Below are positions 8,216 through 64,000 of a stretch of DNA of 64,000 bases, piece by piece. This stretch comes from an uncultured delta proteobacterium (lineage in GTDB: Bacteria > Myxococcota_A > Polyangia > Fen-1088). A program made the position numbers and the translations under genes. Each line of letters begins with the position of its first letter. Position 1 is the stretch's first letter. The notes under the pieces were generated by a model. That model was not told the DNA's origin, searched no databases, and saw nothing but the letters and a program-made list of their open reading frames with translations. The stretch lies in contig CAVWUP010000007.1 in assembly GCA_963758155.1 (NCBI GenBank), positions 12,823 through 76,822 on the forward strand. The letters run 5' to 3'.

Positions 8216-8866
8216 TCACGACCTCTCTGATTGCACCGTGCGATGCTTGTGAGGAGAACCGGTTCGCCTGGTCCGGTGCCTCAGGCTATCGAGAAACAGG
8301 AAATCGGCCCCCACTACTACGAGACGATCATCGAGCTCGTCCTGCGCTCGGAGGCTCGCCGCGTTCTCGGACGCTGCACGCCCGAGGAGCTCTATTCGAC
8401 CAAGCGGGATCTGATCGAGCGCGAAATCCGGGAGGGTCTGCGCGCCAGCGCCCAACAGAAAGCTGGCGATCAGCACGGCCAGGACCAGCAGCGTGATCAC
8501 CACGTAGAACCGATCGCGCTCCGCGATGAAGAAGCCGACCGACAGGGCCACCCTCAGCGCGGGTGTGGCAATGAGCACCAGGATGCCCAGCTCGATGATC
8601 GCGTATGACTTGCCGACGACGGCCGCCCGAAGGATCTCGCCTGGCGCGGTGGGGAAGTGACCCGGGCTTCCTGGCGGCGCAAAGGCAAGCAGGGCGCCCA
8701 GACCGTGCGGCAACACCGAGGCGTAGCCGGTCTGGCCCGTGCGGGCCATCTGGACCACTCCAGCCACGATGAGGGCCGTTCCCAGCAACACGCCGACGCG
8801 CAGGACGTAGCTCACCAGCAGTTCCATGCGTCTGGCCGTGATTCCGCTGGCGGAGTCTTCAGTCAT
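8216..8866 (-). CDS. DUF1634-like membrane protein (TauE partner); C-terminal third doubtful
   Basis: 3-4 TM helices in the first ~140 aa. ATGA overlap with the TauE stop. The tail overlaps an SPFH-like fragment on the + strand. Confidence 0.55.
   Translation of the reverse strand: MTEDSASGITARRMELLVSYVLRVGVLLGTALIVAGVVQMARTGQTGYASVLPHGLGALLAFAPPGSPGHFPTAPGEILRAAVVGKSYAIIELGILVLIATPALRVALSVGFFIAERDRFYVVITLLVLAVLIASFLLGAGAQTLPDFALDQIPLGRIELLGRAASENAASLRAQDELDDRLVVVGADFLFLDSLRHRTRRTGSPHKHRTVQSERS
8290..8470 (+). pseudogene. SPFH/band-7 (HflC/stomatin-like) domain fragment
   Basis: YYETIIELVLRSEARRVLGRCTPEELYSTKRDLIEREIREGL matches the SPFH-domain consensus, then decays. No complete gene. Confidence 0.35.
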
Positions 8867-9750
8867 GGTGCTCCGCCTCTCAGCAGTCCTGCGATCCCGC
8901 TTCGGATCATCTGCGCCGCCACAATCACCAAAACAACCAGAAGCACCCTGTGGATGAAACGGCTGCGCATCCTGCGCAGAAGCCTGGTTCCAATCACGGT
9001 GCCGGCCAACACGCCCAGAGCCACCGGCGCTGCGATGAACGGGTTGATGTCGCCGCGAGCGAAGTACGTGCCCGCGCTGGCCGCCACCGTTACCCCGATC
9101 ATGAAGTTGCTGGTCGTGGTCGATGCCTTGAGCGGCGCGCGCATCAAGCGGTCCATGGCGATCACCTTGAACAGGCCACTGCCGATGCCCAGCAATCCTG
9201 ACACCAGCCCCGCACCCCACATCACCGCAAGTCCCTGCGGGACCCGCGTGACCTGGTACTCGACCTGCCGTCCCAGCGCCGGGTCGAAGTACGAGCCCTG
9301 CAACCGCAGACGCGCCGCCAAGGGACTGCCCGTGCGACTGGGCGGCGTCTCGTCCCCACGCGAGCGGAAGGTCGACCAGCTGGCGTACGCCAGCACCAGC
9401 CCGAGAATCAGCGACAGCAGCGCCACAGGCAACAGGCCGGCCAGCAGCGCCCCGACCACCGCGCCCGTGGTGGTGGCCAGTTCCAGGAACATGGCCAGCC
9501 GCAGGTTGACCATGCGATCGCGAACGTAGGTTGCCGCTGCCCCGCTGGATGTCGCGATCACTGACACCAGGCTTGCCCCCATCGCATACCGAAGATCCAC
9601 GCCTGCAAATAGAGTCAGCGTAGGAATGATGATCAGCCCACCCCCGATCCCGAGCAACGACCCCAGCGCGCCGGCGAGAATACCGGCGGCCAAGACCATG
9701 AGGAAGAATGAGAGAGGCTCCAAGGAAAAACCTGCGGCGAAACCTGACAT
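8863..9750 (-). CDS. TauE/SafE family sulfite/anion exporter (DUF81)
   Basis: Two-fold repeat of 4-TM units with Gly-rich LGIGGGxxxxP and GxGxG motifs. Start at MSGFAAGF. Confidence 0.85.
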
Positions 9751-53831: not shown

Positions 53832-54398
53832 CTACGGTGTCGAGCGGTTGGGCGGCAAGCCCGTCCCCCGTCCCTTGGTCTGGAAACCGATCTGCCGCTT
53901 GGGTTTCTCCGGCGTGGCCATCAGGCTGCGGACGGCGTCGAACAAGGTCACTATGTTTTTGTCGTGGGACGCGATCTGCTTCTCCAGCTCTTCCAGTTTG
54001 GCCGCGAGCTGGCGATGGGAGGCCAGGAATCCCCTGAGCCGGACGAAGACGCGGACCACCTCGACGCTCATCTGCACGGCCTTGGTCGAGTTCAGCACGG
54101 ATGCGGCCATGACGGCGCCGTGCTCGGTGAAGGCGGTTGGCAGGTACTTCCGGTGCTCGCCTCGACCGGGCTTTAAGGTCGCAATTTGCGACCTTAGAGC
54201 GGCGCCCTCTTCCTTGGTCAAGACGAAGGCGAAGTCAGGGGGAAATCGGTCGGCATTCCGTTTCACCTGCTCGTTCAATCGCTTGACGGGCACGCCGTAC
54301 AAGGCGGCCAGGTCGGAATCGAGGATCACCCTGTGTCCGCGCAGGACGAGGATCGTCCGCTCCACCCGTTCCAGCGGGGCGAGGCTGGGCGTGCTCAC
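53832..54398 (-). CDS. ORF6N-domain (KilA-N/antirepressor-like) protein
   Basis: ILVLRGHRVILDSDLAALYGVPVKRLNEQVKRNADRFPPDFAFVLTKEE matches the ORF6N consensus. Confidence 0.8.
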   Translation of the reverse strand: MSTPSLAPLERVERTILVLRGHRVILDSDLAALYGVPVKRLNEQVKRNADRFPPDFAFVLTKEEGAALRSQIATLKPGRGEHRKYLPTAFTEHGAVMAASVLNSTKAVQMSVEVVRVFVRLRGFLASHRQLAAKLEELEKQIASHDKNIVTLFDAVRSLMATPEKPKRQIGFQTKGRGTGLPPNRSTP

Positions 54399-54595
54399 TT
54401 TTCGGTCGCTTTCTTGGCGTCGTAGTCAGCCCGGCCCTTCTCCAGCCACTCCTCGGCCAGGGCGGAGTAGGTCTGCCGTTTCTCGGTCGCGGCCCGCTTG
54501 AGCGCCTTGAGCAGCGCTGGCGGCAGGCACAGCAAGATCTTGTCGTGGTTGAGGGGCTTCCGCGGCATTTGCTTCGTTCGCTTCACTCTCAACAT
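54395..54595 (-). CDS. ribbon-helix-helix (CopG-like) protein
   Basis: AGGAGG ribosome-binding site 7 nt before the second ATG. ...LLCLPPALLKALKRAATEKRQTYSALAEEWL. 4-nt overlap with ORF6N. Confidence 0.6.
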   Translation of the reverse strand: MLRVKRTKQMPRKPLNHDKILLCLPPALLKALKRAATEKRQTYSALAEEWLEKGRADYDAKKATEK

Positions 54596-54757
54596 TATCC
54601 AACCTCCTGAAAACAGCAAGGTTTCCGGTGATGTGGATATAACTATATCAAATGTTATATCCATTTGGTAAGCTATCGGTGGAGGTCAAGAACATGCCGA
54701 GCCCCGCCGTTACCATTCCGCTCAAAAACATCTTCTTCCATTGATGATGGTGCAACG

Positions 54758-55525
54758 ATGATCTTCATCTTCGACAACGGGGAAGTGTTCAGCAACCACG
54801 CGCTGTATTTCGTCGAGGCGCCAGAGGACTTCGGCGCGTGGTTCAACGGCGTCTATCGACCTTGGATCGACGGCATCGAGTATCGGCCGCTGATGATCGT
54901 GGCCACGGCGCCAGCGGTCGAGCGGCGCGAGCGCGTGCCCTACAAACCCCGTCCTCTCGCCAAGTTCGACATGCCCATCGAGGACGATCCCATGCATGAG
55001 TTCTCGACGATATCGGTCGTCGACTTCCTGGCCAAGATCGTCGTGCAGAAGCGCGATTGCAGGCTCCGTCCACGCTACAGGCTGGAGGGCCAGAAGATGG
55101 CGACCGAGCAAGCTCCCAAAAAGAAGAAGCTGAGGAACGCGGGTTTCTCTAACCCGAACGCCGTCAAGCTCGACATCCCCACACCGCCGACCCTGCGCGA
55201 GTGCCTCGCCCGGGGTCTATTCGGCTCGGGCATCTCTCCCCATGGCCACCGCGAGATGAGCGTCGCGCACTCGAAGCAGCTCATAGAGCGCTACCCCTCC
55301 CTCTACCGGCTGGCCGACGCCTCGCCCATCTCGTCGTCGCCGCCGTTCGCCCGTGAGGGCTTCGCATGCGGCGACGGCTGGTTTGCCGTCATCGACAAGC
55401 TCTCGGCGAGGCTGCCCGCCTTTCTCTTTGGCTATATGCATGGTCCCGGCGTCACGCTGAGGCAGTCGGAGCGGCGTGCGCTGATATTGTTTCCCGCTAT
55501 GAATCCTGGACTGCGAGACAACTGA
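54758..55525 (+). CDS. hypothetical protein
   Basis: 255 aa, divergent from the RHH gene across an AT-rich spacer. Confidence 0.4.
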   Translation: MIFIFDNGEVFSNHALYFVEAPEDFGAWFNGVYRPWIDGIEYRPLMIVATAPAVERRERVPYKPRPLAKFDMPIEDDPMHEFSTISVVDFLAKIVVQKRDCRLRPRYRLEGQKMATEQAPKKKKLRNAGFSNPNAVKLDIPTPPTLRECLARGLFGSGISPHGHREMSVAHSKQLIERYPSLYRLADASPISSSPPFAREGFACGDGWFAVIDKLSARLPAFLFGYMHGPGVTLRQSERRALILFPAMNPGLRDN

Positions 55526-55568
55526 AGCAAGCAGCGTGAGGTTGGCGCTGCCGAGGAACGGAGAACTC

Positions 55569-57170
55569 ATGACCATTACCCGTCTTAGGATCCACTGTCG
55601 TCAGGCGTTTCTACTGTCCGCTGTCGTCACGTCAGCGGCATGCGCCAACTCGTCGACCCCGAATCATGCTGGGCAGGGCGGGGGCGGCAGCGGAGGCTCG
55701 GCGTCAGCCGAGTCGCACGGAGGCACCGGCGGTACGGGCGCCGGCGGCACGACCGGCCCAAGCAACCCGTCCAACACTGGCGGCATGACGGTAGTGGGCG
55801 GCATCACCAGTTCTGGCGGCATGACGGTCGCCGGTGGAACGTCCGCCGCAGCCGGCATCACCAGTTCTGGCGGAACGTCAGGCGTCGGTGGTGGCACAGC
55901 CACTAATGTTCCGTGGACGGTGGCGCCGGGCGGATATGTGATGAGCGGACCCTGGGAAGGCTATGCGTGGACGAATGCGGGTGGTACAGGGTCCACGATC
56001 ACTCCAGACAACTTTTCGACGCTCACGGCAGGTAGTCCTCTATGTGCCAGCGGCAGCGTCGGACCGATGGCGGACTACAGTGGAGTCGCTCAAATCGGTA
56101 TTGACCTCGCTCAGGCGCAGGGTGCGCCAGAGGAAACCTGGACGGCAACCGGAACCGGCATCGTCATCAACGTCAGCAACCCGGGCGGGAGTGCCCTGCG
56201 TGTGCAAATCCAAGGGCCAACCGGCGCAACAGATGCCAACGACCGGTGGTGCACGAAGCTCACCGTCTTCGACCAGCCGGTTTCCGTCCCATGGAGCGCT
56301 TTCAACACTGCTTGCTGGGATGGTTCCGGTTCTACCTACAACATGCAGCCGCTTAGCGGCGTGGTGTTGAACGTACCTGGGGGGAACGTAACGGCAGTGT
56401 CTTTCAGTGCCTGCATCGCGAGCCTCAGTTTGCAGACGGGTGGCGGAACGGGTGGCACAACTGCAATGGGCGGCATGATTGCTTCGGGAGGCACAACAAG
56501 TTCGGGCGGCGCAATTGCAACAGGCGGTAGTTCAGCGACGGGCGGATCAACCAACAGTGACCCTAGTGTTTGCAAGCCTCCTACTACTGGTGGTGGCATT
56601 CCTCCGTGCGGCCAATCGGGAACATCTTGCTCACCTAGCAAGACCTACAGCAGCGGGACAACCTACTGTTCCGACAGTAGCACGTGCACAGCATGCACAG
56701 CTACGGGGACTGCTTGCTCGACAACGAATTGCCGGGATTGTTGCAGTGGTGTCCACGCAGACAATTCATGTATTGCGGGGCCAGGTACTCCGAACGGTAC
56801 GAATTGTCGCGGCACAGACTGCAAGGACTGCAGCTCTGGTCTCAGCTCCCAGGGCATTTGTGTTCAGTGCAACATCAATTCTGACTGCGGCTGTCCCACA
56901 GCGTGCATAAACCATCAATGCGTATGCACGCCAAGCAACCGACCTTGCGCGTATCCCAATCAGAACTGCCAGGATTGCTGCTCCGGCTACTACTCGACCT
57001 CCGGCACGTGCTCGTGCGTTCCAAGTGGTACGAACGTTCTTAACAATGTTTGCACGAGCCTGACCAGTGGATCGACGTGTGGCGACTTCACAATGACTTT
57101 CAAGGGCGCTCCCGGAGCGGCTTCTGCCTGCTGCTCGGGAAATGCATCTAGCACGGCGTCCTGTAGCTGA
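55569..57170 (+). CDS. secreted lipoprotein with Gly/Thr/Ser-rich repeats and Cys-rich C-terminal domain
   Basis: Lipobox AACANS. GGxTxxGG repeats. C-terminal ~200 aa dense in CxxC/CC, similar to myxobacterial Cys-rich repeats. Confidence 0.6.
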   Translation: MTITRLRIHCRQAFLLSAVVTSAACANSSTPNHAGQGGGGSGGSASAESHGGTGGTGAGGTTGPSNPSNTGGMTVVGGITSSGGMTVAGGTSAAAGITSSGGTSGVGGGTATNVPWTVAPGGYVMSGPWEGYAWTNAGGTGSTITPDNFSTLTAGSPLCASGSVGPMADYSGVAQIGIDLAQAQGAPEETWTATGTGIVINVSNPGGSALRVQIQGPTGATDANDRWCTKLTVFDQPVSVPWSAFNTACWDGSGSTYNMQPLSGVVLNVPGGNVTAVSFSACIASLSLQTGGGTGGTTAMGGMIASGGTTSSGGAIATGGSSATGGSTNSDPSVCKPPTTGGGIPPCGQSGTSCSPSKTYSSGTTYCSDSSTCTACTATGTACSTTNCRDCCSGVHADNSCIAGPGTPNGTNCRGTDCKDCSSGLSSQGICVQCNINSDCGCPTACINHQCVCTPSNRPCAYPNQNCQDCCSGYYSTSGTCSCVPSGTNVLNNVCTSLTSGSTCGDFTMTFKGAPGAASACCSGNASSTASCS

Positions 57171-57926
57171 TCCCGTAGGGTGCGAATATCCAGGACAGCT
57201 CCAATCCGGCACCCAGGTAGCAGCTCGGTGAGCGACGGTGCACTTGTGCGGCGGATTGCGGCAAATCTGGTGAAGTTGTTGATGCATCATGATCACCTCA
57301 ATTGCTCGGGGAGGAGTCGGTCGGGGACAGGCGCGGTGGAGTGCAAAACCATCTGGTGAAGGAAATTGAGGGTCATGAGCCGAGTTAGCTATGTCTTGTC
57401 GAAATGGTGCCGGCCCTACGAGCCTGGGTGACGAATACCAGGGGGGTAGGTACGTTGGCGGGTGGGAAGAGGTGCAGCCTCCGTGGTGCCCATGCCGTGG
57501 GAATTTTGCGAAACGGTTTCGCGAAATTCAGTACGCGGAGCAGGCCACGAGACGGGTGCTCCCGGCACCGTGAACCGGGAACAGCTTCGACAGCTGGCAC
57601 CAGCAGTCTTCGATGGGCCGGGGGTGGCAAGGGGCCGAACCACATCCTTCACCCGCCAGTGCTTGCGAAAAATGGTGGACGGCGGGAGGCTAGGGCCGAA
57701 TACAAGGTTCGGTGGACGAAAGGCGTATCCACAAATAGCCACGGTCTGGAAGGCCACCATGCGTGCAAGCAAGCGCGGGAAGAGATGAAGAAGCACGAGC
57801 ACCAGAGTGGCAAGCCGGGGGCCGAGTAGCTCCACAGCAGTGCTACGTTTGCGCGATCCGGCCGCTTGGCGTGACTGTCACCAAGCTCGTGCTTGCGTAC
57901 CGTCCGTTTGGCACTATACCAGGCTC

Positions 57927-58646
57927 ATGACTTCGTCCCGAGCGGCGGTCGTGGTGGTGTCCCCGTCAGAGCCTGTTGTGGCGGTTTTGGAACAGGCGCT
58001 TGGTGTGCTCTCGGCAGGCGGCGTGATTGCCTTTCCCACCGACACCCTGTACGGCCTCGGCTGTGCCTTTGGCCAGACTCAGGCGCTTGAGCGGATTCAA
58101 CGTCTACGCGGTATAGATCTGGCAACCCGGCCGCTGACCTTCTTGCTGCCCGATTTGGGCGAGCTTCCGCGCTTCACACGCATGGGCGAGTTGGCCTATC
58201 GTAACGTCAACAGCATCTTTCCTGGACCCTACTGCACCGAGCTGCTGGCCCACCCGAGGGTGCCGTCGCCCCTCGTACAGGGTGACCGGCGCACCATCGG
58301 CGTCCGCATCCCCCAGAGCGCCTTGTGTGAAGAGCTGACCTGGCGTCTGGGCCGACCCATCCTTACGGCTACGGCCAAGTCGCACGATGGTGATGTGCTG
58401 AGCACCGCTGCTGAGATCCGGCAGGAATATGGGACCGATCTCGATCTTATCTTGGACGGCGGAACCCTCAACGGCCCGCCGTCGACCGTGGTGAGCCTGG
58501 TCGACGACTGGGTGACCATCTTGCGCGAGGGGCTGGGTCCGGTGAATCGCCTGGTCGGTGCGGTCAACAGGATCCGCGTTTCGAGCAGGACACACCGGCC
58601 ACCGGAAAGCTCAGTCCGGGCCGCCAGCGCATTGATAGATTCGTAG
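57927..58646 (+). CDS. tsaC: L-threonylcarbamoyladenylate synthase (TsaC/YrdC/Sua5 domain)
   Basis: AFPTDTLYGLGC and later GVRIP..., TATAKSHDGD motifs. Confidence 0.8.
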   Translation: MTSSRAAVVVVSPSEPVVAVLEQALGVLSAGGVIAFPTDTLYGLGCAFGQTQALERIQRLRGIDLATRPLTFLLPDLGELPRFTRMGELAYRNVNSIFPGPYCTELLAHPRVPSPLVQGDRRTIGVRIPQSALCEELTWRLGRPILTATAKSHDGDVLSTAAEIRQEYGTDLDLILDGGTLNGPPSTVVSLVDDWVTILREGLGPVNRLVGAVNRIRVSSRTHRPPESSVRAASALIDS

Positions 58647-58764
58647 AGGCGAATCCGCACGGGTGCCCTATGGCTTTGGGAACAGCCGTCGCTCGTCGGG
58701 CCGTCCACACACCAGGGGTGGGGTATGTCGGCGGGTGAAGAGGGCCGTGTGGTTGGCGACGCTG

Positions 58765-58830
58765 CACATGACCCCATGACCTTGTGAAGGTCGCGGAAAA
58801 GTGTAAAGGCCAAACCGTATCCATGACTGT
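58765..58830 (+). repeat. copy A of IHF/HU-like gene promoter+leader (no coding part)
   Basis: TTGTGAAGGTCGCGGAAAAGTGTAAAGGCCAAACCGTATCCATGAC matches copy C upstream of its ATG. Confidence 0.6.
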
Positions 58831-59345
58831 CGCCACCGGCCCTGAGGGGTACCCTTTTCAGCGGAATCAGCGGGAACCAGGAGCCCACCACAAACCTCCA
58901 CTTTCGAGGAGGGCAATGCGGGCGCACAATGCGGGCACGCTGGTTTCGTCCATGCGTATTGCGGCGGCGAGTGCGTAGCCGGCCGATCAGCGCGCCCCCG
59001 ACGGCGCGCAGGCCGGCGGAGCCGTTGCTATCGAGTTGACGGTCTTCGCCGCCGTCGCGCCTATGCCAAGCGGCTTCTTGGCACACCGACGGAGTACGGT
59101 GCAAGCGAATTTGGTTTCAACCTATCGATGGTGACATCTGTCGCCATCTCGTGGCAGCGTGTAGTGGTCACGCCCCGCTTCGAGAGGAGCCGAGGCCGTC
59201 GAGAGAGCGGCGTCGTTCCTGCGTCTGCGCTTTCAAGCGCGCGCCATTGAGCGCTGGGCGAAGTCATGTCCTGAAATCACCGGGTGGGTCCCTGGCACCC
59301 GGTGATACTGGTGAAAGTGGTACCCCCGCTGGCCGCTGGCGACAC

Positions 59346-59485
59346 ATGACCAAAGCCAACCTCATCACCGTCATCGCCGACAAGCTCAAGTTCCCTTGGG
59401 TGCGTGCGGAGCTGCTGGTCGACGTGGTCTTCGGCTGCCTGGAGCAATCTATCCGTCGCGGCAAGAAGATCGAAATTCGTGCTAC
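59346..59485 (+). pseudogene. copy B: 5' ~47 codons of an IHF/HU-family gene, then divergent
   Basis: MTKANLITVIADKLKFPWVRAELLVDVVFGCLEQSIRRGKKIEIR is an HU/IHF N-terminus. The GFG-arm region is missing. Confidence 0.6.
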
Positions 59486-59610
59486 ACGCCCAAACTATCC
59501 CTATAGCTCTGCAGCGACGACGATGACGGCTTCTCCTGCAGCTCGATCTGGATCGGCTCGTCCGTCGTCGGTGGCACGCACTGGTCGTTTCTGCCTTACT
59601 AGAGCAAATG

Positions 59611-60597
59611 CTAATAGCAGCACCCATTGTAGGGTTGGCCGACATCCCAGCAGGCGACGGCGCCGTCGGTCCGCACGCCGCACGCGTGGTAATAACCCAC
59701 GCTGACAGAAGTGAATGTGCCTGCCGGCAGCGGGAATTGGGTGCTCCAGCAGGCGATTCTGCCATCGGTCCGCACGCCACAGGAGTCGTAGAGACCCACG
59801 CTGACGGAGGTGAAGGTGCCCGTCGGCGGTGCGGCCTGGGGCATGCGGTTTGTGCCCCAGCAGTCGACGGTGGCGTCGGTCCTCACCCCACAGAAGGAGG
59901 AATCACCCCCGCTGACGGAGGTGAAGGTGCCGGCTGGCGTGGGCTGGACGGTGTAGCTTGTGCCCCAGCAGGCGACGGTGCCGTCGGTTTGCACGCCGCA
60001 GAAGTAGGAAAAACTCCCGCTGATAGAGGTGAAAGTGCCTGCCGGCTGGGTGTCGAAAGGGACCGAGGCGTCGAGCGGGGCTGGTGGCACACTGGCGGGC
60101 CATGGTGGCGGCGTGGGTGGGATGCTGGTCTGCCAGCAAAGGACGGTACCGTCGGGCTTCAGACCACAGGCGTAGTAATCACCCACGCTGACGGAGGCGA
60201 AGACGCCTGATGGCGGCGGGAGTAATTCGATGGCGTCACTATTCCAGCAGGCGATGGTGCCGTCGGTCTTCACGCCACAGGTGTAGAGATAGCCCACGGT
60301 CACGGAGCTGAAAGTGCCCGTGGCTGGCGGGCCGTAGGTGTTTGCACCCCAGCAGGCAATGGTATTGTCGGTCTTCACGCCACAGGTGTAGTAATAGCCC
60401 GCACTGACGGAGAGAAAGGTTCCCGGATTGACAGTGCCGATTGCCGAGGAGCCGCCGTCAGGCGCAGGCAACGCCACCACCGATGAATCGTTTTGAAGAG
60501 GTATCGGCTGCGACGACCCTTCGTCGGGTGGAAGCGATCTCCAGGGCGAGGAGGAACAGGCCAGAACCAAGAGCAGCAGCAAAGCCAGACGTGTCAT
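59611..60597 (-). CDS. RCC1-like repeat (beta-propeller) lipoprotein
   Basis: Lipobox LVLACSSS. Seven repeats of GTFTSVSxGxxxxCGVRTDGxxACWG. Confidence 0.75.
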   Translation of the reverse strand: MTRLALLLLLVLACSSSPWRSLPPDEGSSQPIPLQNDSSVVALPAPDGGSSAIGTVNPGTFLSVSAGYYYTCGVKTDNTIACWGANTYGPPATGTFSSVTVGYLYTCGVKTDGTIACWNSDAIELLPPPSGVFASVSVGDYYACGLKPDGTVLCWQTSIPPTPPPWPASVPPAPLDASVPFDTQPAGTFTSISGSFSYFCGVQTDGTVACWGTSYTVQPTPAGTFTSVSGGDSSFCGVRTDATVDCWGTNRMPQAAPPTGTFTSVSVGLYDSCGVRTDGRIACWSTQFPLPAGTFTSVSVGYYHACGVRTDGAVACWDVGQPYNGCCY

Positions 60598-61125
60598 CGG
60601 CACCTCCCTCTCACGGAACATTAGCAAGTGGACCATGAAGATGCGCGCCACGCAAGCTAACGGTTCGCAGCAACCCGCCCCCATCAACCCCGCCAGTAAC
60701 ATGTACGACATGAAGAACACAGCACACCAAGACAGGACCAAATTCAGCGCCCACGGCGACCGACCGCCGCCCATGAGAAGCTGTCGACTGCAGACAGCAA
60801 ACTGGGCACCGCCTACTCAGGGCAAGGCGCACACAGCTGGGCCGTGGTCTCGCTCCGATGGGGAGATGTAATTGTCGCTCAACAGCGGATCTGCCTGCGC
60901 CCTTCGACTCGGCGGCGGTGATGGTTTCTGCGTGAACATCCAGACCCAGATATCGAGTACAATTGCTCCTGACCGACTCCTCCGTTGTGGCTCTGCGTCT
61001 TGTGTCTCACACCAGGCCCGAGCGTAACCCACGGTCCCGGTGTGAGTCGGTCGTTCGATTCTGACTAGCCGCGCTGGTTGAGCATTGTCGAGTTGACGAC
61101 AACCGATGAAGAACGGAGCAACGGT

Positions 61126-61707
61126 CTAGTATACGGTGCCGTCGAACTGCCCGGCGACTGAGGAGACGATTTCCCCTGGCGGCGAGGAAGCAGTCATAGT
61201 GCCGTTGAAGATGGCTTGGATGGGGTCGCAGATAAAACTGCCGGACACTCGATCTCCCCGCGAGGGCTCTAACGGGCCGGCAACTGTCACCGTGCATGAT
61301 GCAGCCGGAAAGCCCGGCGACGCTGGCCACGTGATCAAATCGTAGGTGCCCAACGAGGGGAACCAGGCGTGATTCCCCGTGTCGTTCGAGCACGTGGTAC
61401 CAGCGTAGCCGCCATCGCATTGAAAGACGTAGGTGTCAGGCCCGTGATAGTTTCCGACCTCCAATTGGGCAGACGTAGAGATTATCCCCCCGTCGCTTCC
61501 GGTAGCGTTGAAGTAGCAGATCACAATCATGTCGACCCCGCCCGACGTCGACTTCGTGTCCAGCCCAATGCCACCGCCGGTGCAAGGATAGGTCAAGTCG
61601 CCGAGGGGCGAAGAAATCGTTAGAACCACGTCCGGGCTCGCGGTTGTGTTCGGTGCCCCGCAACCCAGAACAATAGCGGGAAGGGCGAATGCGATCCGAA
61701 CCTTCAT
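61126..61707 (-). CDS. hypothetical lipoprotein
   Basis: Lipobox IVLGCGAP. Coding-like composition. Confidence 0.5.
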   Translation of the reverse strand: MKVRIAFALPAIVLGCGAPNTTASPDVVLTISSPLGDLTYPCTGGGIGLDTKSTSGGVDMIVICYFNATGSDGGIISTSAQLEVGNYHGPDTYVFQCDGGYAGTTCSNDTGNHAWFPSLGTYDLITWPASPGFPAASCTVTVAGPLEPSRGDRVSGSFICDPIQAIFNGTMTASSPPGEIVSSVAGQFDGTVY

Positions 61708-61879
61708 GCGATGGGATCATGCCACGTTGCAGGCGTTCGGTTCAAGTCGTCTTTGTGACCGGTACGTCGAGGCCCATAATGCCGTTGCAGCTGGCAATCC
61801 CGCCGCAGTGATATCGCCTGCCGAGCCAAGAATGGATCGGAGAGAAGCAAGGGAAATCCGGGGAGCTGGCGACGCTGCC

Positions 61880-61985
61880 GTTCAGCTTGTGAAGCTCGCG
61901 GAAAGATGTAAAAGCCAAAACCGTATCCATGACCAAGGCAGACCTCATCACCGTCATCGCCGACAAGGTCAGGTTCCCTTGGGCG
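61880..61985 (+). repeat. copy C: IHF/HU-like promoter+leader plus first ~15 codons
   Basis: TTGTGAAGCTCGCGGAAAGATGTAAAAGCCAAAACCGTATCCATGACCAAGGCAGACCTCATCACCGTCATCGCCGACAAG shares its upstream part with copy A and its coding part with copy B. Confidence 0.6.
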
Positions 61986-61994
61986 CCCCCGGCG

Positions 61995-63320
61995 CTATTT
62001 ACACTTGTTCGCGGCTACGCAGCCGTTGGAGCAGCATCCGCTGGAGTTGGAAAACACGCTGACGTATCCCGTGGGACAGAAGCTCACCGTCAGCGGGCAG
62101 TCGATGGTGCAGGGTTGCGTCGCCGGAGCACACTCGGGAGGGGCGTTCACACAACTGACGAAATGGTTCGAACAAAAGCTGCTGTTGCACGGCAATTCGC
62201 CGCTGAAGAGCGCATAGCAGCCGACCTGGGCATCGCACGTGGTGGGATTGGTGATCTGGGTGCAGGGCACGCCACTCCCGCCAGTGGAAACTATGCCACC
62301 GGTTCCCATGCCTCCGCCGGTCTCCACCACCCCGCCAGCGCCAATGGCACCACCGGCAGCGGGAACTCCTCCGCTGGCAATGCTTCCCCCGGTTCCGCCC
62401 CCGCCACTCCCACCGCTGTTTGAGGAACCGCCGGTACCGCCATTGCCGCCAGTTCCGTTGTTTCCAGAATAGCCACCGCTGCCTAGACGGATCACGGTCC
62501 TGCCACCAGCACCACCAAGCGGAGGCGTACACACGACCTCGCATTTTCCGCCAATGCAGCCAAAGGTGATTGTCTGCGCCGGAGTGTCGCACATGGTTAG
62601 GCAAGGGCAATCGATACGTGTCGCGGACTGGTTGGGACAGTAGACCGCCCACGCAGCCTGATTGGCCTCGCATCGCTTCTCGCTCATCCAATTTGAGCCG
62701 CAACAGTACTGGGCGAAGCACTGGCTCGAATCCGTGGGGGCCGTTGTCCAGACGCACGAGGTCGTGCAGTCGGCATCGCTTGAGCAGGTGTCTAGGTCGC
62801 TGGTGGATACTGAACCGCCAACTCCCGAAGTCCCGCCTCCGCCGGGCACGCCTCCCGCCGCCAGAACGCCGGCGGTAGCTGTCACACCACCAACAGCCAT
62901 CGCTCCGCCAGCGCCAGCGTCCTTCGTCGCACCCGCGTCTGCAGGATTCAGTACACAGATGGGACAGCCGCACGGGTCGTTTGGGTTCGGCTGGACCTCG
63001 CCAGCACAGGCGTGCATAGGAATAGAGCACTGGGCCGGAAGGCAGGAAACCGTTCCACCGAGGGTGCCACTCATCATGCCGCCACCAGCACCGACCATAC
63101 CGCCCGTGCCGCCGGTTGTTCCGCTGCCGATGGTGCTGCCCGCCTGGCCGCCCTTCACCGCAGCGCCAGCGCCTGCAGTGCTCCCTCCACCTTTCAGACC
63201 GGAGCCCTTCACCGCAGCGCCAGCGCCTGCAGTGCTCCCTCCACCTTTCAGACCGGAACCGCTACACGCCCCCAAGCCAGCCAGAAGAAGTGCCACGCCG
63301 CATGTAGACATCTTGAACAT
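61995..63320 (-). CDS. Gly-rich / Cys-rich secreted lipoprotein
   Basis: GGAGG ribosome-binding site, lipobox LAGLGACSGS, Gly-rich linkers, Cys-rich modules. Confidence 0.6.
   Translation of the reverse strand: MFKMSTCGVALLLAGLGACSGSGLKGGGSTAGAGAAVKGSGLKGGGSTAGAGAAVKGGQAGSTIGSGTTGGTGGMVGAGGGMMSGTLGGTVSCLPAQCSIPMHACAGEVQPNPNDPCGCPICVLNPADAGATKDAGAGGAMAVGGVTATAGVLAAGGVPGGGGTSGVGGSVSTSDLDTCSSDADCTTSCVWTTAPTDSSQCFAQYCCGSNWMSEKRCEANQAAWAVYCPNQSATRIDCPCLTMCDTPAQTITFGCIGGKCEVVCTPPLGGAGGRTVIRLGSGGYSGNNGTGGNGGTGGSSNSGGSGGGGTGGSIASGGVPAAGGAIGAGGVVETGGGMGTGGIVSTGGSGVPCTQITNPTTCDAQVGCYALFSGELPCNSSFCSNHFVSCVNAPPECAPATQPCTIDCPLTVSFCPTGYVSVFSNSSGCCSNGCVAANKCK
63153..63260. repeat. perfect 54-bp tandem duplication (x2) inside the lipoprotein gene
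   Basis: cttcaccgcagcgccagcgcctgcagtgctccctccacctttcagaccgga(g/a)cc twice. Encodes GLKGGGSTAGAGAAVKGS x2. Confidence 0.85.
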
Positions 63321-63567
63321 AAATTCCTCCACGCGATCTAGGACAGCAATCTCCGTGCCCAGTCTCGCGCCGCAACGGCAAGGCCGATTCCCTCGCAACT
63401 ACAAGGAGAAAAGCCCAGGTGGTGGGTGAAGACATGGCCATGGAGTCCGCCAGCTATCAGAATTCTGAGGGTAGCCGGCCACGATCTGGCTTATTCCCTG
63501 TCGGGGGACAGACTCAGCCTTGGCCTCGAACTTGCTGATAACCTGCCCACTTGATCTGGAGGCGGCC

Positions 63568-64000
63568 ATGACTCGTTCGCTTTCAGGCAAGACCGGTTGC
63601 GTTCTCACCGCCCTTGTCGTCGCCGCGCTTGCCGGGTGTAGTGGTTCGATCAGCGTACGACTTGATGGCTCAGTCTCGACAGGCGGCAGCACCGTTGAAG
63701 GCGGCCCTCCCGACTCCCAGCTTTGCGGAATGAGCGTTCCACAGGACCACCGCCCCACAGAAGGTCCAGCCTGCCCGAACGACCGAGCTCCGGGAGGGGT
63801 TCCAGCAATGTGCGCTCCCGACGGCGGACCCCCTCCCGGGGGAGACTGTCAGCAGGACTCGGATTGTACCACCGGAATAAACGGAAGATGTCTTCCTCTT
63901 CGAGGCTGCTACATGGTGTGCTCGTACGACGAGTGCTTCCAGGATTCGGACTGCGCGGCTAACGTACCCTGCCAGTGTCGCGACTCGGCATCAAGCACTG
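63568..64000 (+). CDS. Cys-rich lipoprotein (3' end beyond window)
   Basis: Signal/lipobox LAGCSGS. Cys-rich. ORF runs off the window. Confidence 0.5.
   Translation, partial: MTRSLSGKTGCVLTALVVAALAGCSGSISVRLDGSVSTGGSTVEGGPPDSQLCGMSVPQDHRPTEGPACPNDRAPGGVPAMCAPDGGPPPGGDCQQDSDCTTGINGRCLPLRGCYMVCSYDECFQDSDCAANVPCQCRDSASST

Follow-up and report, generated by a model that had tools for sequence, protein, structure and literature searches.

Probable relics of a dispersed IHF-beta-like gene module, one of them split by a small insertion, in an uncultured delta proteobacterium

Introduction

Tandem genomic islands are marked by fragments of tRNA genes, and rolling-circle gene capture is known mainly from antibiotic-resistance contexts in Gammaproteobacteria. 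We analysed a stretch of 64,000 nucleotides from an uncultured delta proteobacterium (contig CAVWUP010000007.1; hereafter the window) in which directly repeated partial copies of a gene for an IHF-beta-like protein flank accessory genes, as in tandem genomic-island arrays. Unlike those arrays, the locus has neither an intact end copy nor an integrase, and its junctions are unlike one another. An initial annotation had described three partial copies (A, B and C) of the 5' end of an IHF/HU-like gene with its promoter and leader. We propose that the locus probably represents two decayed, directly oriented relics of one module, shaped by the insertion of a mobile element, by deletion and by recombination between copies at dispersed sites.

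Rolling-circle elements provide a second comparison. The oriIS of ISCR1 reads GTGGTTTATACTTCCTATACCC (PMC13023784), and that of ISCR27 reads GCGGTTGAACTTCCTATACC (PMC8894482). Subterminal palindromes are a feature of IS91-family oriIS regions, and GTTC and CTTG are the classical IS91 target tetranucleotides (PMC13181058). The oriIS side of ISCR1 is its variable side, and transposition is unproven even for the ISCR elements themselves (PMC6218425). The locus resembles a complex class 1 integron in that partial direct duplications of a flanking module surround acquired genes.

Results and discussion

Pieces A and B form one interrupted copy

Repeats within the window were sought with blastn and HU/IHF genes with tblastn. 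A degenerate-pattern scan of GTDB genomes yielded 28 loci, every one of them in a metagenome-assembled genome (MAG) labelled uncultured Myxococcales or 'delta proteobacterium'; the MAGs stem from projects on fen and Danish soil. With B as the query, a protein search gave 19 metagenomic matches, 34-79 aa in length. Related loci and proteins are denoted by L and P numbers, respectively. The pieces in the window are as follows.

58745 to 58828, forward strand: proximal half of copy 1 (A), a leader with the promoter-like TTGTGA...TAAAGG, followed by ATGAC.
58823 to 58828: left CATGAC target-site duplication, the last 6 nt of the proximal half of copy 1.
58829 to 59344, no strand assigned: non-autonomous insertion of 516 bp, similar to a miniature inverted-repeat transposable element (MITE), with terminal inverted repeats (TIRs) at both homology breakpoints.
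59345 to 59350, forward strand: right CATGAC target-site duplication, a single CATGAC in uninterrupted homologues.
59346 to 59481, forward strand: distal half of copy 1 (B), codons 1-46 of the IHF-beta-like gene, MTKANLITVIADKLKFPWVRAELLVDVVFGCLEQSIRRGKKIEIR.
59482 to 59506, forward strand: 25-nt tail of copy 1, CTACACGCCCAAACTATCCCTATAG, the last 25 nt of a dispersed repeat of ~120 nt (R120).
61782 to 61986, forward strand: copy 2 (C), with an upstream region of the U1 subtype, the leader and codons 1-18/19; ATG at 61929.

Within the window, A aligns with C at 58781-58827 / 61886-61933 (89.6% over 48 nt, E 8e-12) and B aligns with C at 59345-59400 / 61928-61983 (91% over 56 nt, E 1e-16), similarities that greatly exceed chance. 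An additional 21-nt match lies upstream (58745-58765 / 61858-61878), and blastn detects no further copies in the 64 kb. How are A and B related to each other? A resembles not only C but also the leader of about 15 related loci (88-96% identity), and in all of those loci the leader passes uninterrupted into ATGACCAAR.... A and B are the two sides of a single copy broken by the 516-bp insertion, because the TIRs end at both breakpoints, the 6-bp duplication flanks the insert and the homologues show the empty site. The single CATGAC of the empty site is found in L001, L003, L007, L009-L013, L033-L037 and C of the window, and about 20 related loci carry the uninterrupted site. Thus, the three partial copies originally described reduce to two. 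The initial annotation rightly traced the pieces to the 5' end of an IHF/HU-like gene and its regulatory leader, and rightly took none to be full length. The lengths change from 47 to 46 IHF codons for B and from 15 to 18-19 codons for C. Neither an intact HU/IHF gene nor a 3' half is detected anywhere in the window by tblastn.

The insert in copy 1 belongs to the non-autonomous TIR elements and has duplicated 6 bp of its target. Its TIRs (58829-58889 and 59283-59344, TGTCGCCAsCGGCC...) are 62 nt long, imperfect and 76% complementary, and their arms stop exactly at the two homology breakpoints, with CATGAC on both sides. No transposase-sized open reading frame (ORF) fits into the 393 bp between the arms, the ORFs that overlap the element are probably spurious long frames of GC-rich sequence, and the DNA fold of the element joins its two ends (z = -5.4). 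A shorter related element with the same ...GGCGACA terminus lies in L034 (2283-2495). The insert is therefore similar to MITEs in its small size, imperfect TIRs, target-site duplication, lack of a transposase, end-to-end fold and occurrence of a shorter relative in another genome. Unlike for multi-copy MITE families, only that one relative was found, and neither the rest of the window nor the other loci yielded a second copy. A check for target-site duplications around the two lipoprotein genes between the copies had been advised; the duplication instead flanks the MITE-like element inside copy 1. At 58766-58784, two CATGACC units stand in tandem just 5' of the -35-like hexamer in A (CACATGACCCCATGACCTTGTG; other copies read CGACGACCTTGTG). 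They may stem from a local duplication of small size, or they may be a footprint in which the hexamer duplicated by the MITE took part.

The initial annotation had named an assembly artefact, such as collapsed repeats, as the condition that would overturn it. In favour of collapsed or chimeric repeats, the source is apparently an uncultured-organism assembly. However, the copies measure 50-170 nt and are only 88-91% identical, too divergent for mis-joined reads, the MITE junctions carry a clean target-site duplication, and comparable multi-piece arrangements occur in independent assemblies (L007, L010, L011/L036 and L046). An artefact is thus extremely improbable.

The parent gene and the ancestral site of copy 1

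Intact relatives of the window fragments encode 101-120 aa and carry the beta-arm motifs GFGSF and GRNPRTG. Similar to IHF-beta and HU (DNABII, PF00216), the intact proteins of L010, L011 and L014 can be aligned over their whole length with both the IHF-beta and the IHF-alpha model. IHF-beta is the best NCBIfam match of the L010 homologue (89.5 bits, E 1e-25, versus a cut-off of 115), and L014 scores 96.7 bits against the IHF-beta equivalog (NF001222 / TIGR00988), short of the cut-off of 115. Judged by these profiles, the intact relatives appear to be IHF-like and nearest to IHF-beta, at scores below the equivalog cut-off. Unlike IHF-beta, they include a multi-copy paralogue group that is separate from a probable housekeeping copy. 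The multi-copy group 1 (VDVVFGCMEQSMSRG...) includes the window fragments, and one MAG holds four group-1 copies and two fragments; the second group (VDQIF...) is the probable housekeeping copy. The window copies differ from IHF-beta and HU in their extent, as they comprise 46 and 18-19 codons without the DNA-binding arms. B ends with ...KIEIR directly ahead of the GFGSF motif and covers positions 1-45 of the 90 in the Pfam Bac_DNA_binding profile (E 1.3e-3); its 19.3 bits stay below the cut-off of 22.4 because only half a domain remains. C is too short for this domain test, and the intact relatives pass it, as does the domain retained in L036.

The gene upstream of copy 1 identifies the site.

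57807 to 58646, forward strand: gene of the Sua5/YrdC/TsaC family (L-threonylcarbamoyladenylate synthase), Pfam Sua5_yciO_yrdC E 5.6e-35.

This gene also scores 139.8 bits against NCBIfam TIGR00057 (cut-off 123.2), and window 57761-58818, which comprises the gene and the leader, corresponds to L010 8945-10002 (90.2% over 1066 nt). In L010, from Myxococcales MAG fen_1158, Sua5 is followed by an intact 108-aa IHF-like gene and then by the convergent 467-aa lipoprotein gene X, whose stop overlaps that of the IHF-like gene. Given this Sua5/TsaC synteny, copy 1 occupies the ancestral position. Because the Sua5 side and the X side are both syntenic with L010, the differences between the two genomes are confined to window 58829-62900.

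Copy 1 carries a widely dispersed deletion junction

B is 87-92.5% identical to its relatives at the nucleotide level, with L047 as the closest (92.5%). Codon 46 is joined to the 25-nt tail after ...ATTCGTG, and the identical junction is present in eight other DNA contexts, namely L001, L003, L007 (twice), the second copy of L010 (17287-17493), L034, L035 and L047. Past ...CCCTATACCC, the DNA differs in every junction locus, and the right boundary is sharp, with 11 copies diverging beyond it. What was the tail before it was joined to codon 46? A complete R120 lies directly 3' of the intact gene in L013 (2709-2811) and, in L036, adjoins a truncated gene copy that has kept its 3' part; R120 is also found alone. 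It contains a conserved 10-bp subterminal palindrome and terminates in ...CCCTATACCC, and the tail in the window is mutated at its tip (CCCTATAGC) and lacks the palindrome. The delta unit, composed of the leader, 46 codons and the 25-nt tail, is thus an internal deletion of codons 47-108 together with the first ~85 nt of R120. Copy 1 belongs to this dispersed deletion derivative and is not a local accident, because the identical junction recurs across many loci, in line with the earlier suggestion that a small leader-bearing element has spread.

The junction tail is found in 16 of the 19 protein clusters and is read in three frames (ATRPNYPYTQ, ...HAQTIPIP and ...YTPKLSLYP), and it is therefore conserved at the DNA level and not as protein. 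The SIRRG signature of B is otherwise found only in the truncated-type proteins P0002, P0009 and P0019, and all intact copies have SMSRG. A delta-type SIRRG part on the leader of the ancestral site argues for recombinational replacement by another copy and against a deletion in situ. The right-hand part of the unit has 0 matches among the viral contigs of the collection scan and the leader scan of metagenomes gave a single match, L037; the family is rare in the viral-contig and metagenome collections scanned.

A conserved intergenic repeat of ~190-250 nt is located at window 57309-57464 (to about 57540), always in the orientation of the IHF module, and a partial 3' copy lies just 5' of A (58700-58745). 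The repeat recurs in L001 (5755/9760/12880), L007 (4859/9124/11947), L035 (3111/6355/9683), L010 (8502/17091) and L047 (4039/6344). Related loci contain 2-3 of these repeats per 10-20 kb, flanking variable cargo and often ~60 nt 5' of the delta unit. It has no Rfam match and, in RNAalifold, almost no covariation. Rfam 15 on 54000-64000 returned only IRES_Bip, a sub-threshold chance match (23 bits versus a gathering score of 40), ARAGORN found no tRNA or tmRNA in the window, and an explanation by structured RNA was dropped on these grounds. In L010, a gene for a secreted Cys-rich protein of 107 aa (8690-9013) separates the 190-nt repeat from Sua5. Its counterpart at window ~57560-57829 keeps only the C-terminal ~22 residues in frame (ACKQAREEMKKHEHQSGKPGAE) and appears to be likewise decayed.

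In L001 (10197-17206), L003 (10218-15221) and L007 (5599-15781), all metagenome contigs, the delta unit is placed between variable cargo and a conserved module of PDDEXK_1, Rad52, VWA and MoxR-AAA genes. The cargo is partly defence-like (RVT_1, Mrr_cat, AAA_15, TIR_2-LRR, FRG and FGE-sulfatase), and the region may be prophage-like or an island hotspot. A prophage reading of the window was dropped, as the PDDEXK/Rad52/VWA/MoxR module is absent from it.

Copy 2 is cut after codon 18-19 and abuts a convergent lipoprotein gene

Copy 2 belongs to a different subtype of the module. Its closest relative is the intact U1-type copy of L037 (89.7% over 175 nt), and it also matches L009, L003, L033, L034 and L036, which share the U1 upstream region, from -97 to -149. 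No homology extends past ...CCCTTGGGCGC, and the stop codon of the neighbouring gene X' is 8 nt away.

61995 to 63398, reverse strand: convergent Cys/Gly-rich lipoprotein gene X', with its stop 8 nt from the breakpoint of copy 2.

The same breakpoint is found in other loci. A left-only fragment in L036 (10441-10594) ends within 1-2 nt of it, and a right-only fragment in L007 (5623-5736, protein P0019) starts at it, at TGGGCG. The recurrence may reflect microhomology-mediated joining or a specific cleavage site. The breaks lie at window 61980-61986, L036 10588-10594 and L007 5623-5628, and the DNA on the other side is unrelated in each. Just 5' of TGGGCG (GGTTCCCTTGG), both GTTC and CTTG are present, and the breaks are not exactly at either.

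On the far side of copy 2, window 62914-63655, with the N-terminal part of X' and its upstream region, is 77-81% identical to L010 10970-11985. The X' and X proteins have only the signal peptide and one Cys-rich module in common, and the C-terminal ~300 codons are unrelated; the replacement therefore took in IHF codons 19-108 along with the 3' part of X. The Gly/Ala-rich part of X' contains a perfect 54-nt tandem duplication (2 x 54, 100%; window 63150-63257), which suggests a recent repeat expansion.

The segment between the copies

The copies had been described as bracketing two lipoprotein genes, and B and C do flank two minus-strand genes with lipobox-like N-termini, separated by a conserved block.

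59611 to 60774, reverse strand: cargo gene 1, RCC1-repeat protein and probable lipoprotein, Pfam RCC1_2 E 1.6e-28.
60905 to 61070, reverse strand: conserved block, a possible remnant of the 5' end of an insertion sequence (IS) transposase gene, 95% identical to L003 8993-9158.
61126 to 61707, reverse strand: cargo gene 2, 193-aa probable lipoprotein, MKVRIAFALPAIVLGC....

Cargo gene 1 has its likely start at 60597 (MTRLALLLLLVLAC...) and contains internal repeats of ~108 nt, the 193-aa product of cargo gene 2 has no Pfam family, and both lipoboxes were taken from the sequence. On the minus strand, the conserved block presents GGAGGAG, then a start codon mutated from ATG to AGG, then SNCTRYLGLDVHAETITAA, and possibly resembles a ribosome-binding site and the first 20 codons of an IS transposase gene. 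The block possibly extends to ~60780, and the genes that adjoin it differ from those in L003. A likeness to an IS110-type N-terminus is at most a conjecture, with no support from Pfam or plasmid tblastn.

Do these features indicate serial integration? In a tandem site-specific integration into the 5' end of the IHF-like gene, the integrative elements would bring a leader and 5' codons of their own, and successive events would leave an array of 5' fragments. The directly oriented 5' pieces that bracket cargo, the recurrence of the codon 18-19 breakpoint with TGGGCG in C, L036 and L007a, and a tyrosine integrase gene near the IHF fragments of L036 are all in keeping with this model. However, the model predicts an intact downstream gene, and copy 2 is instead the shortest piece and adjoins a convergent gene. 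Furthermore, no integrase is found in or adjoining 59507-61781, the two ends of the bracketed 2.3-kb segment are unlike, with the R120 tail on one side and the U1 upstream region on the other, and the end of copy 1 is a deletion junction common to many loci and not an att core. The N-terminal part of X' and its upstream region are syntenic with L010, and the DNA to the right of C is therefore native and not an island. We consider tandem integration very unlikely. The initial annotation had offered serial rearrangement or insertion at one target: the pieces are indeed rearrangement products, but serial insertion is unsupported, because the segment ends are unlike, no integrase lies near and the downstream copy was not restored to an intact gene. 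An integron-like cassette reading, suggested by the conserved intergenic blocks, was rejected, as there is neither an integrase nor an attC-like common site and the blocks are of several unrelated types.

Truncated copies are under relaxed constraint

Can the truncated copies have a function of their own? Without the beta-arm motifs GFGSF and GRNPRTG, neither window copy can yield an IHF/HU protein that binds DNA. Over codons 2-45, the pairwise dN/dS (ratio of nonsynonymous to synonymous substitution rates) is 0.47 for truncated versus 0.16 for intact copies; dS is similar, and dN of the truncated copies is three times that of the intact ones. The truncated copies are thus under relaxed constraint, and both window copies are regarded as pseudogene relics without a function of their own.

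The opposite view is that the truncated unit is a functional mini-gene, in which the N-terminal IHF helices serve, for example, as a dominant-negative partner, or a portable promoter that drives neighbouring cargo. In its favour, many loci conserve the unit together with the leader, its dN/dS is below 1, and gene callers predict ORFs of 57-79 aa from it. As a mini-protein, however, the unit is rejected on the tails that are read in three frames among the copies, on an in-frame stop in the truncated copy of L034 and on the raised dN. The promoter variant fares no better. The TTGTGA-N16-TAAAAG promoter proposed in the initial annotation is conserved in all relatives but is not called by a sigma-70 consensus scan, and the MITE parts the leader from the ORF in window copy 1. 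In addition, the cargo beside delta units is mostly on the opposite strand and cannot be driven by the leader, so the leader is not a cargo promoter. The 18 codons of copy 2 enter the antisense strand of X', and its leader, if it is an active promoter at all, would, speculatively, only read antisense into X'. A functional mini-gene or portable promoter is accordingly highly improbable.

With the copies read as relics, the 'triple partial gene' resolves into a MITE-split pseudogene and a second relic, a worked example of little biological consequence. The locus is an ordinary case of decay within an accessory region prone to rearrangement and rich in transposons, and it does not form a working system. 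The example also serves as a warning for annotation: the 57-79-aa ORFs to which metagenomes of peat and fen Myxococcales give the name 'nucleoid DNA-binding protein' are relics of a truncated gene.

A proposed history of the locus

We propose that the locus derives from a module of ~0.4 kb, a conserved leader with an IHF-beta-like DNABII gene, which is multi-copy and heavily rearranged in an uncultured peat and fen clade of Myxococcales. Copy 1 stands at the ancestral site 3' of Sua5/TsaC, and its distal part belongs to the dispersed delta unit. The 516-bp MITE-like element would later have entered directly behind the start codon, with CATGAC as the duplicated target, giving A and B. A second subtype of the module supplied copy 2, which breaks off behind codon 18-19 and runs into the 3' end of X'; the C-terminal half of X' has been replaced as well. 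The intervening segment most likely arrived or was reshuffled via homologous recombination or segmental duplication between dispersed module copies. L046 has an arrangement akin to that of the window: 4.5 kb separate an intact copy from a delta copy, and a convergent X-like gene comes after each of them.

Several points weigh against this history. Random decay does not predict that the breaks of three independent fragments coincide to within 6-7 nt (TGGGCG) at codon 18-19. A donor arrangement with the RCC1 and 193-aa genes was not found. The dN/dS of 0.47 is not 1 and compares only 45 codons, and thus some constraint or gene conversion from intact copies is possible. The MITE-like element has a single relative, which documents its mobility as a family only thinly. 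Finally, an intact IHF-like copy is presumed to exist elsewhere in the source genome.

A possible rolling-circle connection

How did the delta unit disperse? One possibility is that the 25-nt tail is a remnant of an oriIS-like terminus and that the units are the right-hand ends of non-autonomous rolling-circle elements. The DNA abutting the tail, lipoprotein genes in the window and defence-like genes in other loci, would then have been captured as in the complex integrons of ISCR1, with partial direct duplications left around the captured genes. At the CCCTATACCC terminus of R120, the last 9 nt are the same as in the ISCR1 oriIS, and the ISCR27 oriIS has AACT..CCTATACC in common with it. Similar to ISCR1 and IS91, R120 combines a fixed terminal motif, ending in CCTATACCC, with a subterminal palindrome, as in IS91-family oriIS regions, and with variable DNA from exactly that end: the sharp boundary, beyond which the DNA differs in 11 copies, parallels the variable oriIS side of ISCR1. 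The right end is kept and the left loss varies, as seen in L007a, L036 5691-5942 and the lone R120 copies. Moreover, ISCR-like transposase genes occur in the same genomes as the modules. One lies just 5' of the IHF module of L013 and matches Pfam Y2_Tnp (E 2e-25) and NCBIfam ISCR clade Ia (E 6e-44); in L032 and L033, fragments of this type directly adjoin the module on its 5' side.

The likeness is nonetheless incomplete. No transposase is found with R120 as its own end, and the resident IS91/ISCR-like element has another end (...CCCCCTTCGATTCGCTTA, ~180 nt past the tnpA stop) and stops 890 nt before the IHF gene of L013; R120 as the oriIS of this resident IS is therefore rejected. The window retains 25 nt only, without the palindrome and with a mutated tip, tblastn finds no fragment of a Y2 transposase in the window, no terIS was identified, and the 9-nt terminal match is possibly a coincidence. 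With ...CTATAC taken as the end of the element, the adjoining tetranucleotide is CCAR in 7 of the 10 copies outside the window and CCGA, CCGG and CCCA in the other three, and the CC could equally be part of the element, as in ISCR1. Elements of the P0028/P0029 type have no IHF gene downstream. On balance, a rolling-circle origin of the units is unlikely. It would add a dispersal mechanism and extend the explanation by relics of a dispersed module, and the verdict on the window would be unchanged. If it is true, rolling-circle capture would extend to environmental Myxococcota and to the shuffling of lipoprotein and defence genes.

A more far-reaching version, which we hold to be distinctly improbable, is that the leader, IHF 5' end and 25-nt tail, often after the ~190-nt repeat, are the business end of an undescribed system of Myxococcota, either non-autonomous, rolling-circle and ISCR-like or a recombination cassette system. 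Such a system would repeatedly place cargo exactly at CCCTATACCC, with TGGGCG at codon 18-19 as a second cleavage or termination site. Its cargo would be the lipoproteins in the window and the reverse transcriptase, Mrr and TIR-LRR genes in L001, L003 and L007. A modest chance of something new stems from three residual features: the sharp CCCTATACCC boundary, the recurrent break at codon 18 and, in related loci, the 190-nt repeat flanking cargo.

The resident IS91/ISCR-like element is ~2.0 kb long (L013 354-1506; L038-L045). Its tnpA encodes 493-501 aa with Zn_Tnp_IS91 and Y2_Tnp domains, its sharply defined right end reads ...ACCCCCTTCGATTCGCTTA, ~180 nt past the stop, and near-identical copies are present in several peat metagenomes. 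A search for Y2 transposases gave 926 proteins at E <= 1e-20, and some IS91/ISCR-like copies have a large serine recombinase and the reverse transcriptase of a group II intron as neighbours.

Mobile genes in the wider setting

Genes of other mobile elements accompany the IHF modules. L009 contains IstB of IS21, and L036 contains DDE_3 in addition to its tyrosine integrase; an IS5-like fragment, recognized from the sequence, adjoins an IHF fragment in L036. Upstream in the window itself lie an ORF with an IS66 zinc finger and an ORF6N gene. Both belong to window 31686-55525, which also encodes an AAA_27/SMC-like protein of 1181 aa, a HerA/FtsK-like ATPase and a ThiF protein beside a subtilase, and which looks like an accessory island.

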